Under the pieces are notes generated by a model, which saw only the letters and a program-made list of their open reading frames with translations, was not told the origin of the DNA and did not search any database. Shown in pieces: positions 25,275-60,000 of a stretch of 64,000 nt of DNA. The DNA is from Octopus vulgaris (taxonomy: Eukaryota). The position numbers were made by a program, and so were the translations under genes. Positions within the stretch are counted from its first letter, which is position 1, and each line of letters begins with the position of its first letter. The DNA lies in the NCBI GenBank assembly GCA_951406725.2, contig OX597824.1, positions 39,742,001 through 39,806,000 of the forward strand, in the 5' to 3' direction.

Positions 25275-25508
25275 TAGGGTAATAAGAAATTATTATTACC
25301 AGTGGCCTAGCACAAAAAAACGAATTAGTCATTAGACTATATATTATTCACATAGAAATACAATAAGAGGCTTCCAAATATGAAAGCTTTGTGCTAGAAA
25401 GAGCAGTAGAAAACTCATGTCACCAAATTTATCCTTATTTGGTGGTTTGAGTTTTCTACTGCTCTTTCTAGCACAAGGCTTTCCTATTTGGAAGCCTTTC
25501 ATTGTATT

Positions 25509-27723: not shown

Positions 27724-27776
<53 letters not shown>

Positions 27777-27780
27777 TGAA

Positions 27781-28110
27781 GGCGCATGGCTCAGTGGTTA
27801 GAGCGTCGAGCTTACGATTGTGAGTTTGTAAGTTCGATTCCCGGACCGGGATGCGTACTGTGTTCTTGAACAAGACACTTTATTTCACGTTGCTCCAGTT
27901 TACCCAGTTGTAGGGATGAGTTGCGACATCACTGGTGCCGAGCTGTGTCGGCCCTTGCCTTTCCCTTGGATAACATAAGTGGTGTGGTGAGGGGAGGTTG
28001 GTATGCATGGGCGACTGCTGGCCTTCAAAAACAACCTTGCCCAGACTTGTACCTCGGAGGGTAACTTTCTAGGTGCAATCCCATGGTCATTCATGACCGA
28101 AGGGGGTCTC
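27781..28110 (+). mobile_element. tRNA-derived SINE family B, full length
   Basis: ggcgcatggctcagtggttagagcg A-box, agttcgattcc B-box, CORE-like tgtgttcttgaacaagacacttta. Homologous copy at 47604-47931. Confidence 0.9.
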
Positions 28111-28380
28111 CTCCTCCATACATATATGTATATGTATATATATATAATAAATATCAGGGTATGAAAAACTTTTAGGCATTTTTTACTACCAGTGGCCTAA
28201 GCATGTAGAAAACTAGTCAATAGACTATATATTGTTCAAATAAATACAGTGTACATTTAAACACATAAGATGTAACCATCATAGGACACCTAGCACGCTA
28301 GAAGGAGTAGCCAAAATCCAAACCACTATTAGGGATAAATTTCGAAGGGAAGGAAAAATAAAAACATTTACCATCTATCT

Positions 28381-28450
28381 CCTGGACTATGGTTTCGAAC
28401 TCTAAATTAGCAAATAAAGTAATTTACTAGGCGGAGTTCTCTTCAGCAAG
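28381..28450 (-). ncRNA. Hammerhead ribozyme motif (left arm)
   Basis: Minus strand: CTTG-CTGAAGA-GAACTC..TAGTAAAT..ATTTGCTA..GAGTTC-GAAA-CCATAG-TC-CAGG. Confidence 0.78.
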
Positions 28451-28622
28451 GTCGCCAAGATTAACATATAATACGAGGCAATACAGTAAATGCTTCGTGC
28501 TTGTATATTATTTTTTTTTCAAATCCACCGCGCAAGCGCAGTATTTTTGTCGGCAGTAAATAAATATAATGCCGGCATTTCTTCCATTTATTGCCTCGTA
28601 TGTATATTTTAATCTTGGCGTC

Positions 28623-28692
28623 CCTGCTGAAGAGAGCTCCGCCTAGCAAATTAATTTATTTGCTAATTTAGAGTTCGAAACCATGGTCCAGG
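28623..28692 (+). ncRNA. Hammerhead ribozyme motif (right arm), best example in the window
   Basis: CCTG-CTGAAGA-GAGCTC-cgcc-TAGCAAAT(taattt)ATTTGCTA-attta-GAGTTC-GAAA-CCATGG-TC-CAGG. All core residues present; stem I CCUG/CAGG; palindromic ACCAUGGU; predicted GUC cut after 28688. Confidence 0.85.
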
Positions 28693-28893
28693 AGATAGAT
28701 GGTAAATGTTTTTATTTTTCATTCCCTTCGAAATTTATCCCTAATAGTGGTTTGGATTTTGGCTACTCCTTTTAGCATTCTATGTGTGCTATGATGGTCA
28801 CCTCTTATGTGTTTAAATGTACACTGTATTTATGTGTGTATGTGTGTGTGCGTGTGTGTGTGTCTGTGTGTGTATATGTGTGTGTGTGCGTGC

Positions 28894-28935
<42 letters not shown>

Positions 28936-29380
28936 TATTATGCATTTGTGCATGTTCTTTTCTGTTTTAATTACTGAAATTCTTCCTTTGAAGAAGGAAC
29001 TGGTTTCTAAAAAGACATAAAGCTCCATCGTTGGAATGTAGATAACGAAACGAATGTCACATTTTAAACCTGAGAAAGTTTTGCTTACAGACTGCAGTTG
29101 TAAAGCAAAGGTGCTTAAGTTTGCGTAAGATTCATCCCATTAATTTTAAACCACATCATATATCCGATAGAAGGGTCTTCACGGACTTTTTCATGCCATC
29201 GAAGTAAATCTTGGCTTAGATGTAGAGGAGTAATTATATATTTTTGCTTGTTTTTTGTATATATGTATGTATATATATATATGTATGTATGTATGTGTGT
29301 ATATGTGCAGACTTGTATGTTTTGCTTCATATATGTATCCTCATGCATATAGTTGCATTTCTAGACATGCTCATATATAT

Positions 29381-35870: not shown

Positions 35871-35959
35871 TCTCTATATATTGGCCTGGACCAATCTTTG
35901 GTCGAAACATATCTAAGTTTATCTAAGTTTATATATATATATATTTATATGTTTTTATT

Positions 35960-36175
35960 TTCTCATTTCGCCCCTGTCGAATTTTATTCCTAATTTTGTG
36001 GTTATAGAACCTAGCTGTTCTTTCTAGCGTGTTGAATCCCACGAGTGGATTCCTCATGTGTTTAAATGTACACTGTATTTTATGACTAATACATAGTCTT
36101 TGGACTAAATTTTTACACGTTAGGCCACTGGAAATGAAAATTTTAATTAATTTCCATTTCCCTTTGATATGATTA
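35960..36175 (+). mobile_element. 3' terminus of the 28.2-kb pLTR-like family
   Basis: atgtgtttaaatgtacactgtattt...atagtct...taggccactgg matches the reverse complement of 28186-28266 and ends in TA repeats. Confidence 0.7.
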
Positions 36176-44369: not shown

Positions 44370-46025
44370 TTTTCTTTTTAGTTTCAGCTCAGAGCTGTGG
44401 TCATGCTGATGCACCGCCGTTTTGCTACTCTCTTATTACTAAGAGCCTCCTCTAATATGTGGCACTTGGTGAAGAATAGAGGTTGATATAGCTACTCTCA
44501 TTTGCACCTCTAGACGTCCGGTAGGCTAATCTGGGACTCTCGACAGAAAGAGGTCCAGCTTTGATTTAAAAACCCTTAGATTTACTTTGTGCAAGTTCCT
44601 CAGACTCTTTGGGAGAATATTAAAAAGCTGTGGGCCCTTGAAATCCGGGCTGTTGCAGTAACTGGTCATGGAGCGTGATGGCATTGCTGGGATCTTTTGC
44701 ACTATGCAGTGTCGTCCCATTCTGGCATTGATGTAACTTTCAATGCCAAAATTTGGCACAATTCTTTCCAGGATCTTCCAGATATATATTGCTGCATACC
44801 TCTCCCGTCTTCTCTCCAAGGAGTAGAGTCTTAGCTGTTTCAACCTTTCCCAGTAGCTGAGCCGTTGCAAAGAGACGATCTTCTTTGTGAATCTTCTCTG
44901 GATTGCTTCAAGGTCCGTTGTTAATTTCACACTGGTGGGTGACCACAGCTGTGAGCAGTAATCCAGGCGACTGATGACGAATGTCCGCCAGAGGACCATC
45001 ATGGTTTCCTTATCTCTGGTTCTGAATGTTCTTAGGATCCACCCAGCCAGTCGTCTGCACTTTGTCGCCATCCTGGTATTGTGCACTTGGAAAGAGGTTT
45101 CATCACACATGTCGATACCCAGATCCCTCACTGACTTAGGCTCTGGGATTGAAATTCCCTGTGGACCGGTGTACCCTGTAAGTTTCATATTCAGTTTTGG
45201 ATGCTGGTAGCGCAGAGCCTGGAATTCTTCAGCATTAAACTGCATATTATTATCCTCAGCCCATCTGTAGATTGAGTCCAACTCCTGCTGCAGGTGTGTA
45301 ACATCGCTGGGGTTCCGTATTTTCTGTGAGACTTTCGTATCATCTGCATAGCTTGCCAGAGTGGCTATCTGGGCATTTGAGGGCATATCTGAGAGGGTCA
45401 CTATAAAAAGCAGTGATCCCAAGGCAGTGCCCTGTAGAACACCACTCACTATTTGTGTGTTCATAGAGGTGGCTCCATTAGCCACTATTGCCTGACTCCT
45501 ATTTTCCAGGAAGTCATGTAACCACACTCCAAGTTTTCCAGCTATGCCAAGGTCACGCAGTTTGTGGCATATCATACCATGATCCACCTTGTCAAAAGCT
45601 TTTGCAAAATCAAGGTATATTATATCCCCATTTGATTTGTTGAGTAACTGCCTCAATATCCAGTCATAATGTTGTAAGAGCTGGGTCCGGCAGCTCCTAT
45701 CTGGTCGAAAATCATACTGGGTATCACTCAGCAAGTTATTTTCCTCAAGGAATGCGATTAGTTTCCTTCTGACTATCCGTTCCATAACTTTGCTGATGTG
45801 TGAAGTCAGAGAGATAGGCTTATAGTTTTTGGCATCTACTTCCGCCTTTATGTATTGGGCATATTATTCCCTTCTTCAGCTTGCTTGGCAGTTTGTCATT
45901 TGTAAGAAAGCTCTGGAAGAGAATCTTGAGGGGTTTTACCAGGGCATGCTTACACGATTTGAGGAGGATTGCTGGGAAACCATCAGGACCAGCGGCTGAG
46001 TTTGTGTCCACTTCATCTATGGCTA
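44370..46025 (-). mobile_element. 5'-truncated CR1/L2-group LINE with RT domain and 3' tail
   Basis: RT ORF plus upstream frame (AAGPDGFPAILLK..IICPIHKGG) joined by a frameshift near 45830. 3' UTR ends ggcggtgcatcagcatgaccacagctctgagctgaaac followed by an A-rich tail. Confidence 0.92.
44526..45785 (-). pseudogene. LINE reverse transcriptase domain (419-aa open remnant)
   Basis: YLDFAKAFDKVDH, SGVLQGTALGSLLF, YADD, RDLGI, LDYCSQLWSP, LYSLERRRERY. The endonuclease part is missing. Confidence 0.92.
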
Positions 46026-46871: not shown

Positions 46872-47603
46872 ATGCAACTTGAGTTCAGGATTTTCTAATT
46901 CATTTTTTGTTTGTTCTAGTTTTATAACAGCGTGTCTCATATTTTTTTTCGTGGTTTGGAGTTTAACTGCCCTTTTGTAAGGAGTCTTGTCATGGTTCTC
47001 CTCTCTGTGTATGAACATATTTTATGCACTCTTATATTTTTTAAAATATATTGTCTTATGACTTTTATTTATGCATACTAGCCACTAGTAATAAGTTATT
47101 TTAATTTAATCCCCTTATATTTACGAGATGTTTCAAGAATTCAGTCAATACTACCATCCACAACAAGTCACTTTCAGGGCACTTGACCATTTAACATCCC
47201 ACTACTATCATGGCACTCCCGCATTCGTCTTCCCCTCCTCCTCCTCTTCTTCTTCTTCTTCTTCTTCTCCTTCTCTGCCAAGAATTCACAACGACCTCCA
47301 ACCCACAAGAGAGAGAGACAGAGTCAGGCAGAAACAAGGAAAATGCCCGTTGTATTTGAATACTCTTTTAAAAATATTCTTTAAAAAAACTTTTCTTTTA
47401 ACTCTTCCAAAATGTAATTGTTTTCCATATTTGCAGTTGAAAAAGTCTCAATGACTGAAAGCGGTACTGAAATGCCTTTTATAAAATTATTTTAGCATTT
47501 TCTACCTTGACTTTTTTCTATATAGATATGTATGTATATATATATATGTGTGTGTGTGTGTGCGTGTGTGTATGTGTGTGTGTGTGTGTGTGCGTGTGTG
47601 AAT

Positions 47604-53728: not shown

Positions 53729-55001
53729 TTCTAGTTCGGAAAATACTTTGTAACTGAACAATCAATATTCGCTTATTTCAGTGTATAATTCGTTATATTA
53801 AACTATCGTATGTCCAAATTTGGCCAAATGCGTGTTTTTTCTTTTTTTTTTTTTTTCAACATTTAATTCTGCTTGCAATAGCCGGTTATTTTGGTCAAAC
53901 TATCGTATCTCCTGCTAATTCAGATGCCAAAATATGAAAATTGTCAAAGTGTAGTACAACAGCTTAGAATTTTTCAAAAATATAAGTCCCACATACGACA
54001 GTTTTGCAAATAAATTTCTGACTGAAAATATCATACATGCATGGAGTTACGATTTCATGCACCCAACAAAGTATGATTGTTAAGCTGAAACTGTTGCTAA
54101 TGTAAAAAAGAAATGGAATGGTGAAACTATTTTTTCGTTTTCTGAAAAAGTAACGTTTTAGACTTTCGACACTTTTGCATAATAGCAACGAATTGTAATA
54201 AAACTGCAACGAGATCCAGCGAGAACATAAACCATGTCGCAACCTCTTGTCATAGTTGCTTACGTTATCTTTTATTCCACAACGGTCATAATTATATCGT
54301 TCTGCTAGATTACCCATGAAGTGCTTATATTTTAGAAAGAAAGAATCACTCGAAGTAGCAATTTCTAGTTCGGAAAATACTTTGTAACTGAACAATCAAT
54401 ATTCGCTTATTTCAGTGTATAATTCGTTATATTAAACTATCGTATGTCCAAATTTGGCCAAATGCGTGTTTTTTTTTTTTGTTTTTTTTTTCAACATTTA
54501 ATTCTACTTGCAATAGCCGGTTATTTTGGTCAAACTATCGTATCTCCTGCTAATTCAGATGCCAAAATATGAAAATTGTCAAAGTGTAGTACAACAGCTT
54601 AGAATTTTTCAAAAATATAAGTCCCACATACGACAGTTTTGCAAATAAATTTCTGACTGAAAATATCATACATGCATGGAGTTACGATTTCATGCACCCA
54701 ACAAAGTATGATTGTTAAGCTGAAACTGTTGCTAATGTAAAAAAGAAATGGAATGGTGAAACTATTTTTTCGTTTTCTGAAAAAGTAACGTTTTAGACTT
54801 TCGACACTTTTGCATAATAGCAACGAATTGTAATAAAACTGCAACGAGATCCAGCGAGAACATAAACCATGTCGCAACCTCTTGTCATAGTTGCTTACGT
54901 TATCTTTTATTCCACAACGGTCATAATTATATCGTTCTGCTAGATTACCCATGAAGTGCTTATATTTTAGAAAGAAAGAATCACTCGAAGTAGCAATTTC
55001 T
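53729..55001 (+). repeat. Recent tandem duplication, unit about 635 bp
   Basis: 53729-54362 and 54363-55001 are nearly identical (ORFs 53964- and 54599- share an identical translation); TTCT microhomology at the junction. Confidence 0.93.
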
Positions 55002-55128
55002 GCGTTGTTGTTGTTGTTGTTTTGCTGTGTTTTTGTTTTTAATTCCAGTTGTATTTGTGCTGTAACTTATACGAAACAGCTTCAAAAGATGATCAGATCA
55101 GTTTTGCTACCCAGCTTGACATCAGTTC

Positions 55129-56269: not shown

Positions 56270-57690
56270 GGAAGAAAAACAGGGACACCAGGATCTCTAT
56301 CATAATTATTTCTTCCTAAGTGGTCCATGAACCCTGAATATAAATCAACTCTTAATTAATTTTGATGCTTTCTGATATAATACGGACGACAAACTTCTAC
56401 TTTAATATAAGCATCAACAATATACTGCTGAACTAGGTTGCCTGATTTGTGAATTGGACTAAATTCATCCCTTATTGCTAAACGATAGCAATAGTATTGT
56501 TGCATTGTGACTTTATTGCGAACTCTGGTTTGCCTCTGTTGCACATGTTCTATACTTATGTGCTAACCAATAGTATTGGATAAATCATACGATCTAAATA
56601 CAGCGAGAGATACGATATTTGCTGCCTTTGTACACCTTGTGGATGAACTGAAAGTGCACCATCTTCACCCACAAATACAGCTGCAATTTCATTATGAACA
56701 GGGTTATTGTATCTCCTGGCATCTGGGCCTGAAATGAAATGCATAGTTACTTTCTTCGGATTAGCATTTTCTCTGGCTGTTCCTTTTTCTTCTTGTTCAA
56801 CAGTGCGCATATTTAAATATGCTGCAGTATATGGATTATTCAGCATGACTGAAGAAATCTTTTCCATTACTGACTGCAAGCAATTAATATTTTCAGGCAC
56901 TTCAGCTCTTGTTTGTAAGGCTTCTTTAGAATCAACAATATAGAGTTAAGCATTTCTTCTAGGTTCATTGTTTTCAGGATGTAAGTTGCTTGCGTGATGA
57001 TAGACTTGTCCTTACAAGCGGAAACAGTATGGGCCACGACCGACCAGGGGGTAATGTAACATTGGCTCCAAATGAGGCGAATGAATACATTGAATTATAG
57101 TTCCTGATATTCTGTCAAAAGTTCATTCCTTCAATGTCGGTATTCTCCAAAAGTTGTTTTTTTTCTTGTATATATTTATGTATATTTGGCAAGGAAACCT
57201 TACCGTTAAGGCAACAATTAAGTGCTTCCTGCAGAAATCTACATGCATTACAGTGCGGACATACTACGTTCATCTCACCAATCCCAAATTGAAAATGTTA
57301 TTGTTCTTTTATTATATTCCGTCTTCTTATTTGATCTTTGTCTGTCCTAAGATAATTCTGTGTTTCAGCTTCTTCCATATTTTTCCTTCTTTGTTGAACT
57401 CTGTTTCTCAAATTTTTCTAAGAACAGCTGTCTTTGCTCGTGGCTCGTGTTCTCGATTCCTTTGATATCTATCACTCTTATTTTGAAAATACACTTCTCT
57501 TTGATCCTGGTTCATTTGTTCTATCGTTTGCTGATTTCTTACCCTCCTATGCCGTAGGATACGCTCCCTCTACTCTTCACTTATTTCGTTTCTTCAGTGT
57601 CTCACACTCGCGCGATTTTTATTCCTTATTTCCTCCTGCTGGTCTTCACGCAATCGTTCTGTGTCTCTCATGCGATTATCCATGTTTCAA
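56270..57690 (-). mobile_element. Decayed Helitron Rep/helicase N-terminal region
   Basis: Minus strand: NIRNYNSMYSFASFGA, GPYCFRL.GQVYH, NNPY, DARRYNNP..NEIAAVF, YYCYRLAIRD.F......LVQQYIVDAYIKVE, LRVDLYSG, all characteristic of Helitron Rep proteins. Stops and frameshifts present; truncated at (TA)n. Confidence 0.88.
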
Positions 57691-57805: not shown

Positions 57806-59189
57806 GTGTGTTTCCTTTAATTTTTGTTTACTTACACGCATCAACAAATGAGCCAGAAACTCTAACTTAAAGATATAGAAAGAAAAAGACAACGTTGTAT
57901 CCCAAAGCCGAATGATGTTTTTTAGCTGACGTGTAATTTTATAATGAAATGCGAAATTTAAATTTTGGAGCAAAACACTTACCATGTTATCTGGTGTATG
58001 GTGGCAGTTGAAATGGGTTAAAACAAATGTGTGTGCGTGTGTAGTTGGGCCTTTAATAGCAATATAAGGTCAGTCGTAGAAAGGAATTCAAAACGGCAAC
58101 ACGCACAATCATATACATACAAACATACATATTCATGGACACACATACACAAACACATATATATAGAGAGAGAGAGGCAGACATACAGACATTAAGTGGC
58201 AGAGAGTTCACTAATCTCTCTCTCTCTCTTCCTATCCGTTGCTTTGCCACTGACTGGAATTGTTTTAGTAGTGTCTTCAAGCTCTTTCTCTCTCTCCCTC
58301 TCTCTCTCTTTCTCTCTCTCTTTCCCTCTAAGTTTTCTCTTGCTATTTAAACAATAAATGACCAAAATGATTCAGTGTTCCAATTGAAAATCATATACGA
58401 ATGTATTAGACAGTTTTTGTTTAGGATACGGTATCCAATGTTTGCTCTGGTTAAAAACACAAACCAAACACCACTTTCCTTTGAGTTACCACTCACTCCT
58501 CTCTCCCTCTCTCTCTCTTTCTCTCCCTCTCACTCTCACTCCCTCTCTCACTCGCTCTCTGTCCCGATTATAACAGCAGTTAATGTTTAAGAAATAAAGG
58601 ACGTCGTTTTACATATGTGCTTGTACATAATCAAGTAAACAAATGTACAAATTGAAATGCAAAAGAATGAAATAATAAATGGATTTATGAATGAAAGTTT
58701 AGTAATTGCGTTCATTTCCACCACGCGACACTTATTATTGCAAACATGTTTTAACTAACCTAAACTATACACACACATAAATACATTCATATATATATAC
58801 ATATATCGAGTTGTAGCTGTAATTCAAAGGGGCCAGTCTTGACTGAGTGAAGCTGAATCTCCCTGAGAACTCCCTTAATATCATTCATGTCTGTGGAGTA
58901 CTCAGACATTTGTAAGTTAATTTTTATCGTCGTGCAGTAATGAAAAGTGAAATTGCCATCCAATATTTGCTATGTCTATGTATCTATGAACTTTTCTTTG
59001 TATTTATGTATCTACTCTCTCACTCTCTCTCTCTCTCTCTCACTCTCTCTCTCTCCCTTTCTCTCTTACTTCCTCCCTGTCTTCCTCTCTCTCCCTTTTC
59101 CACTTCTTTGAAGTAAGTGTGACACACATATCAGATACGCACAAAAACAAAAAGCTAGCGTATTAATATTATTGATATATATATATCCG

Positions 59190-60000
59190 GAAATGTTCCC
59201 CTCCCTCCCAAGTCGCGAAACGAGGGCAAAGGATAATATACCCGAACAAGAAACACAAAAGGAAACGAAACTGCAAAATAAGTAATAACACAGTTAATTT
59301 TGCGTCTATGGCCAGTATCACGAGCGAAATAGTGCAAGTCGGCCCGGACGATCTGGAGAAATACAAGTTTTTAATACAAAAGGAGGGAACCAATGTAAAA
59401 CTGATCCCACCTGGTGAAGTGATATACATCACAAAGAGACAAACAATCGTGTTTAAAACCTTGTCACTCAAAACAAAAAAAATTGAAATTGCTACTAAAG
59501 AAGTAATCGAAAAATGCCTACAGCCGATATGGCAAAATATAATATACATAGCCAGAGGAAAGCGCTTCGGAACTGTCAAAGCATGGTTCTCTTTGGAAGA
59601 AGAAGACAATAAACATTCAACAACTCCCCTAAACACAACGGAGCTAGTACTGCTGCCAACATATGTAGGCAAGCGGATATCAAAAATCAAAATAGGAGAG
59701 GCCCCACCGGAAATCGACGTGGTGTGGGTGGTGGCAGCTGAACTGCTAAACTTGGAGGATAAAATCGCCAGGCTGCACTAGCTTAACTGGAGGGCGAGGC
59801 CGAAAACTGGTAATCCAGACCATCCAGCAAAACTTGGAAGAATTGCCAGATCAAATTTTACTGCTGGACTAAACCAAACTAAGAGTATTAGAGGTGGGAG
59901 CGAAAGCCAAGATGCTACAAGTGCGGCATGAAAGGGCATATTAAAACCGCATGCCCACAAGACAAAGCGCCAGTAGCAACCCCTACGGCAAGTAATTCCC
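59190..60000 (+). pseudogene. L1/Tx1-like ORF1 (gag-like) remnant with CCHC zinc knuckle
   Basis: ORF 59308-59781 ends at a premature stop; KPRCYKCGMKGHIKTACP (CX2CX4HX4C) follows at 59904-59957. Homologous decayed copy at 8450-9090 (-). Confidence 0.7.

Follow-up and report, generated by a model that had tools for sequence, protein, structure and literature searches.

Hammerhead motifs in a head-to-head fold-back of the Octopus vulgaris genome: a probable Penelope-like insertion from a dispersed ORF-less repeat family

What is a pair of complete hammerhead ribozyme motifs, one on each arm of a long inverted repeat, doing in an octopus genome? An initial annotation of a 64,000-nucleotide stretch of Octopus vulgaris DNA (contig OX597824.1, positions 39,742,001 to 39,806,000 of assembly GCA_951406725.2; hereafter the window) had noticed such a fold-back and asked whether its arms bear the marks of selection on a self-cleaving RNA. 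Our analysis gives a different answer: the locus is a decaying transposon copy, which is of little weight by itself, and the repeat family to which it belongs is the subject of most of what follows.

The fold-back itself, proposed with arms of about 245 bp, was confirmed. Its ungapped arms (28237-28470 and 28603-28836) are 234 nt long and 93% complementary; when one 1-nt gap is allowed, they extend over 28237-28483 on the minus strand and 28589-28836 on the plus strand, which gives 247 aligned nt at 93.5% around a 105-nt spacer, with 16 substitutions and the gap as the differences between them. The plus-strand RNA of 28150-28836 is predicted to fold into one long hairpin of -408.6 kcal/mol (z = -44 against 20 shuffles). 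The left, long copy (28145-28584, minus strand) is a near-full monomer of an ORF-less repeat, covering unit positions 1-440; it is 5'-truncated at the pivot and its 3' side is the distal of two 3' termini. The right, short copy (28589-28836, plus strand) is inverted relative to it, covers unit positions 102-348 and ends at the proximal 3' terminus. The left copy continues for about 92 nt (28145-28236, minus strand) that are absent from the right copy and from the initial annotation, and we refer to this stretch between the two preferred 3' termini as the tail. The spacer (28484-28588), which forms the loop of the fold-back, is made of the 5' part of the left copy and a 4-nt pivot (28585-28588). 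A (TA)-rich microsatellite (28118-28144), a flank type shared with the family copies, and a (TG)n/(TA)n microsatellite (28833-28932) are likely the two halves of the target site; both flanks are microsatellite and no target-site duplication is readable at the locus.

We scanned both strands of the whole window with a regular expression for the hammerhead core plus stems and found exactly two hammerhead-like sites, one per arm, with C3 at 28627 (plus) and 28446 (minus). The type I motif of the right arm lies at 28623-28692 on the plus strand and that of the left arm at 28381-28450 on the minus strand, and the cut is predicted after C17 of a GUC, at 28688 and 28385, respectively. Each motif consists of a 4-bp stem I, a full core, a stem II of 6 bp with a further helix of 8 bp beyond an internal loop, and a stem III of 2 bp. 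Both arms satisfy the full type I core definition as given in the cited part of PMC7151607 (C3 U4 G5 A6 N G8 A9, G12 A13 A14, an A15-U16 pair and H17), and stems I, II and III form in the predicted folds, stem I being open-ended. The claim of an intact hammerhead in each arm, with a GUC site and a cut after 28688 in the plus copy, is borne out as a motif and as a prediction. Rfam returned 0 matches in the whole window at the gathering threshold and 26 matches in 28000-29000 at E<=10, none of them a hammerhead; the extended stem II and the 4-bp stem I may lie outside the Rfam hammerhead models. Therefore, the hammerhead call rests on the motif, the fold and the covariation in the family. The initial annotation had overlooked one difference between the arms. 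The palindromic loop III, kept in the right arm and in 60 of the 76 family copies, is broken in the left arm, where a private change at 28388 gives CAUA instead of CAUG and the ACCAUGGU palindrome is lost. The predicted energy of helix III in a dimer is -11.2 kcal/mol for right/right, -4.6 for right/left and +1.4 for left/left. Dimeric cleavage requires this palindrome, which the left-arm change destroys.

A search of the genome (2.8 Gb in 227 contigs) indicated that this locus is not special. The arm query gave 3,078 first-look candidates and the longer query with the left copy 3,495, of which 40 were scored each, and a 22-mer across the cut site had 114 exact matches against 0 for its reversed control. 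The fold-back is one of many dispersed copies of a repeat of about 460-462 nt that has no ORF. The head-to-tail period of this repeat is 456-466 nt in 9 distinct tandem loci, and the tail-to-head junction, where the 3' end is joined straight to the 5' start, was matched at all 40 scored places. The unit in the window contains no ORF (the longest stop-free sense stretch is 41 codons). Older 5'-truncated relatives lie elsewhere in the window at 25278-25407 (minus), 35949-36146 (plus) and 46950-47095 (plus), and a separate hairpin of about 100 nt follows the relative near 25290. A diverged sister family, whose core is canonical, whose stem II differs in sequence and whose palindromic loop III is longer, was seen in another locus (L066:980-1239, minus). 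We found no description of this repeat family in the literature searched, of which supplements and repeat libraries may hold one. The main text of a 2026 octopus repeat annotation lists Penelope-like families without mention of hammerheads or ribozymes, and the giant squid genome paper, in the part that concerns us, reports 235 hammerhead-1 matches.

The fold-back is the normal form of this family, accounting for about half of the copies examined. The samples consist of top BLAST matches and exact-pattern matches, not random draws; when all searches were pooled and clusters less than 60 nt from a locus edge excluded, 121 distinct clusters comprised 57 head-to-head, 64 single-orientation and 0 tail-to-tail arrangements. 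Two exact-pattern samples contained 12/27 and 17/30 head-to-head pairs as well as 10/27 and 10/30 tandems, and a hammerhead-spanning copy was present on both strands in 3/27 and 4/30 (the latter including the window locus). Of 135 segments, 43 have their 3' end at unit 340-359 and another 64 have it at 430-440, mostly against (TA)n, although the query stops at unit 440 and some of the latter ends continue into a tandem junction. The arms have two fixed termini about 95 nt apart, which lie against (TA)n/(TG)n. Both outer ends are at the preferred termini in 36 of the 57 fold-backs, and these are 31 long plus short, 5 short plus short and 0 long plus long combinations, an excess of long plus short over independent assortment (p = 4e-6). 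The window locus, with its long (440) and short (348) arms and 4-nt pivot, is of the long plus short class, and its short arm lies wholly inside the span of the long one.

We consider it very probable that these observations (the repeat and its period, the two 3' termini, inversions that are head-to-head only, the long plus short ends, the microsatellite flanks and the stem II compensation described below) reflect, at this locus, one insertion of a non-autonomous, ORF-less Penelope-like element of the retrozyme type, in which a borrowed Penelope reverse transcriptase (RT) primed from both cut ends. The Penelope RT-endonuclease would act in trans, its GIY-YIG endonuclease cutting both strands of an AT-rich microsatellite. 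One target end would then prime cDNA at a distal start site on the RNA (unit ~440) and the other at a proximal one (~345); both cDNAs would stop early and be joined 5'-to-5', yielding a head-to-head pair with initially identical arms. Published accounts of Penelope-like elements (PLEs) describe, in the sections cited here, insertions with an inverted 5'-truncated copy at the 5' end, a tail at one end and a bias to microsatellites (PMC8557442), with head-to-head as the most frequent arrangement and the tail on one of the inverted pLTRs (PMC3846280). The hallmarks present in our family are the head-to-head 5'-truncated copy, partial tandems, two 3' termini and AT-rich or microsatellite flanks. 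An RT/GIY-YIG ORF is absent, and because the unit has no ORF, we file it as a non-autonomous rather than an autonomous PLE. The initial annotation had recognised neither the high copy number of the arms nor their arrangement as a routine product of PLE insertion.

The genome has elements with RT and GIY-YIG domains (Pfam PF00078 and PF01541), for which a search gave 8,016 candidates; such elements end in (TA)n and carry the CxxxxCxxC linker, which PMC8557442, in the part cited, gives for Neptune-type elements. In 2 of 120 clusters (L013/L121 and L060) a Neptune-like ORF fragment is joined immediately 5' of the unit and shares its orientation; these fusions do not continue on the far side and are possible template-switch chimeras. 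In a third cluster (L025) a PLE fragment is fused 3' of the unit. The protein of this fragment looks Hydra-like; Pfam gave no match for the tested piece of it. With two Neptune-like fusions and one Hydra-like fusion, the clusters point to more than one candidate mobiliser. An nhmmer profile of the unit, run on sampled Neptune-like and Hydra-like loci, matched only where a copy of the repeat itself lies, and the alignment of the unit to one Neptune-like 3' end scored 144 against 144.7 +/- 8.2 for shuffles. No homologous pLTR of an autonomous element was found among the top-scoring copies of a few Neptune-like and Hydra-like families. Several parents were considered and rejected: the Hydra-like PLE beside L025 has a different upstream sequence in the 14 copies listed, and the Neptune-like families beside L013 and L060 have 3' ends of their own, in which homology to the unit could not be detected. 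Two pairs of motifs on the same strand, spaced 2.4 kb (L114/L115) and 0.7 kb (L165), could have been pLTR-ORF-pLTR structures but turned out to be local duplications. We also observed that Neptune-like families with RT and GIY-YIG that end in (TA)n are abundant (L122-L170 and L232-L270, e.g., L154:3759-5360 on the plus strand), that degenerate hammerhead-like motifs occur at their 3' ends, some of which share the palindromic loop III of our repeat, and that a second, AT-rich PLE-like (Hydra-like) family exists with 597 candidates (L061-L090).

Did the ribozyme matter to the elements that carried it? We aligned 76 of 79 copies, leaving out one duplicate (L114) and any copy that covered less than 66 nt of the hammerhead span. 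Comparison of the subfamilies shows two-sided changes at four basal pairs of stem II, in 25, 12, 27 and 11 of the 76 copies, and the covariation score is 0.166 against 0.112 for shuffled alignments (0/500) and at most 0.053 when the structure is slid, where the cells counted are sequences, not events, and the independent events are few. The number of pairs with a two-sided change (6) is not above that of the shuffles (167/500), and stems I and III display no real covariation in the 76 copies. True compensatory change is found only between subfamilies, in stem II. We infer that selection acted on the ribozyme in the source elements, its purpose probably being the processing of tandem precursors as a dimer or with the help of a protein. 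U replaces C at core position 3 in 47 of 78 copies, the first pair at the base of stem II is missing in 43 of 76, and 19 of 76 have the full canonical core. Natural U3 variants of the hammerhead are mentioned in the cited part of PMC7151607; with the frequency of U3 and of the missing stem II pair, the commoner subfamilies may be poor catalysts. The core diverges by 3.4% and the flanks by 6.0-10.3%, a comparison that is not usable as a measure of conservation since the sample was partly selected on core letters. Natural C3 and U3 hammerheads with a covarying stem II are material for testing whether cleavage matters to these elements.

Among the other explanations, the one that survives best treats the family as a canonical non-LTR retrozyme, which forms circular RNA and is still expressed from tandem copies, our locus being a by-product. 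The head-to-tail period, the absence of an ORF, the GC content (34% in the L093 monomer) and the type I hammerhead with a palindromic loop III all speak for it, as do partial tandems with two hammerhead spans (L093, L101, L102 and L110). However, the loci listed contain no single-orientation array longer than about 1.7 units, the U3 cores and missing stem II pairs speak against it, and the L093 monomer, taken from cut to cut, has no better a predicted fold than its shuffled versions (-96.4 vs -92.2 +/- 5.6). Additionally, copies are about 7% from the majority of their subfamily (the closest 3.7%) and no young copy was seen among those sampled. We find this explanation unlikely, and it is compatible with the Penelope-like insertion that we prefer.

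A different proposal concerns only the second arm, which could have arisen by snap-back of the first cDNA or by a later inversion through recombination or replication slippage. Self-priming has been proposed for PLE inversions in the cited part of PMC3846280, and the short arm lies wholly within the span of the long one in 15 of the 31 long plus short fold-backs, the window locus included, as a snap-back copy would. In 12 of the 31, however, the short arm extends further 5' than the long arm, while the tail is on the long arm alone. Each arm then has sequence of its own, which one snap-back could not have produced, and so neither was copied from the other in this way. Both arms also stop at the fixed termini of the family, and a later rearrangement would not yield 57 head-to-head against 0 tail-to-tail clusters. 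We regard this origin as unlikely. The 12 fold-backs with sequence private to both arms favour two target-primed events over snap-back, that is, the Penelope-like insertion with priming from both cut ends.

The third possibility is that the locus is a selected RNA switch in which transcription from within or across it gives either a self-cleaving RNA or a long double-stranded substrate for ADAR or Dicer that regulates a host transcript. It was stated in the initial annotation that transcription in either direction meets one sense ribozyme, and that a read-through RNA could instead form a long duplex that sequesters it. The second statement is supported by prediction: in a read-through RNA, forming the hammerhead would cost about 93 kcal/mol, compared with 3-10 kcal/mol when the other arm is absent (9-10 if the RNA begins at the pivot, 3-6 in short constructs). 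The prediction is that transcription of the full hairpin leaves its ribozymes silent, and a transcript across the locus would be a good double-stranded RNA and a plausible candidate substrate for ADAR or Dicer. The first statement holds geometrically, but the antisense arm is always made first and a lone copy is predicted to be a poor cutter. Hammerheads with such a stem III are described as cleaving poorly as monomers and better as dimers in the cited parts of PMC4209133 and PMC7229834, and the hammerhead of the PAc element needs a protein and is dispensable for insertion in vitro according to the cited part of PMC11167929. Cleavage at the locus is unlikely, given that stem III has 2 bp, that each strand has a single sense copy and that the antisense arm is made first.

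The differences between the arms do not rescue the RNA switch. The three stem differences given by the initial annotation exist as written, yet the suggestion that they hint at selection is unsupported, as none is two-sided and the ribozyme region is no less divergent than the rest (6/75 against 10/169 in the remaining arm, Fisher p = 0.58). The change in stem I is a C-to-T private to the left arm, and so is the distal change in stem II, the subfamily having C at these sites in 10/10 and 8/10 copies; the third (GAGCUC/GAACUC) is polymorphic within the subfamily. Among the six differences of the ribozyme region there are also one in loop II, private to the right arm, and one just outside stem I, private to the left. 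All three stem differences preserve pairing. Across the family, one-sided changes in the helices that do not covary do so in 28 of 99 cases, which puts the chance of three out of three at about 0.02, or at about 0.08 if the two private differences alone are counted. Both arms of the locus retain the core together with stems I and II, as do just 7 of the 76 aligned copies, and the duplex is very stable. However, the locus was picked for looking intact, its subfamily has C3 in 12/12 sampled copies, and a second head-to-head fold-back (L091) likewise keeps core and stems on both arms. Each arm has 10 differences from the subfamily majority, and the likeness of the arms is typical of inverted pairs (0.83-0.97), not closer in the ribozyme. 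The lost palindrome of the left arm, with its +1.4 kcal/mol for a left/left dimer helix, weighs against the switch as well. We therefore judge a selected switch to be very improbable; the arms most likely started identical, as a Penelope-like insertion would leave them, and have since drifted 6.5% apart without a sign of selection.

That the inverted arm is an artefact of assembly is practically negligible, as the initial annotation had argued from the differences between the arms. These amount to 16 sites and one gap, with private changes on each side. Although none of the contigs listed for four public runs covers the stretch in full, as expected for a repeat, 56 other clusters share the geometry with different pivots, and an independent run has 6 opposite-strand joints among the 15 listed for the family.

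Beyond the single locus, the family invites a wider, speculative reading, to which as a whole we give little credence. The genome would carry thousands of ORF-less PLE mini-elements, about half of them near-perfect hairpins of 100-350 bp, as a built-in source of double-stranded RNA for ADAR or Dicer that would silence the family; the ribozyme fold might have been retained through compensatory change even where subfamilies have drifted to a U3 core, as a handle for protein binding rather than as a catalyst; and the strict long plus short rule might mean that a single integration complex must prime at both RT start sites as a pair. The genomic copies carry no asymmetry of the kind an ADAR footprint would leave on the sense strand (A>G 125/5693 vs T>C 149/7954, p = 0.19).

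Several other features of the window were recorded. A SINE-type repeat with a tRNA-like head (27776-28115, plus; A box at 27787, B box at 27832) is oriented toward the fold-back and has relatives of about 84% in other loci. We rejected it as a promoter of the hairpin: RNA polymerase III terminates at runs of four or more T, and the T-runs at 28170 and 28179 would stop it before the arms. By eye, a 445-codon open frame (44526-45863, minus) resembles a LINE reverse transcriptase, and open frames of 201 (59176-59781, plus) and 129 codons (56556-56945, minus) look like other mobile-element fragments. A degenerate, telomere-like (TAACCC)n array lies internal to the contig at 52192-52334, and near it a duplicated segment has produced two near-identical frames (53964-54395 and 54599-55066).

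How does the family compare with known systems? As far as the cited parts of these sources go, the closest structure is the insertion unit of endonuclease-bearing (EN+) PLEs (Craig et al., 2021, PMC8557442; Arkhipova et al., 2013, PMC3846280), which has the head-to-head inverted 5'-truncated copy and partial tandems in common with the locus and the family, and also the optional tail on one arm, the hammerhead in a terminal repeat and the microsatellite or AT-rich targets. Unlike it, our repeat lacks an RT/GIY-YIG ORF, its tail joins the head in a period of about 462 nt and is about 92 nt long compared with the 30-40 nt described for PLEs, and no parent element was found among the families sampled. 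The hammerhead itself resembles the minimal, dimeric type I hammerheads of PLEs (Cervera and De la Pena, 2014, PMC4209133): both have a short stem I (4 bp), a long stem II and a very short palindromic stem III, both show compensatory change between consensus families, and pairs on opposite strands 100-700 bp apart, as in our fold-backs, are among those reported in 2014. In contrast to the type described there, stem II of our family extends past an internal loop into a second helix of 8 bp, no base is left unpaired ahead of stem II in the window copy, and most sampled copies have U3 opposite G8.

With the metazoan non-LTR retrozymes, as presented in the cited parts of Cervera and De la Pena (2020, PMC7229834) and Li et al. 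(2026, 10.64898/2026.07.22.740005), the family shares a unit of low GC content that has no ORF, is arranged head-to-tail and carries one type I hammerhead. These retrozymes are proposed there to be non-autonomous PLE derivatives, with mollusc examples of 350-390 bp, and our unit is slightly longer than the 150-450 bp quoted for them (PMC7229834). Unlike retrozymes, the family consists mostly of monomers, partial dimers and fold-backs, with no long arrays seen. With one hammerhead per strand, the locus falls outside the 'active' class of Li et al., which is defined by no fewer than two successive units whose hammerheads are complete; partial tandems elsewhere have mostly U3 cores.

Finally, the Poseidon element PAc of the green anole, in the part of Frangieh et al. 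(2024, PMC11167929) that deals with its insertion, has a tail delimited by two internal sites, downstream of the hammerhead, at which the RT starts; at AT-rich targets, cutting and extension involve both strands of the DNA, as we propose for the octopus repeat. PAc is autonomous with a tail of 30-40 nt, whereas our family is ORF-less with one of about 92 nt. In vitro, PAc shows no difference between strands in the choice of start site, while the genomic fold-backs described here have nearly always one end of each kind. The family is a clean in vivo data set on how inverted PLE insertions form.
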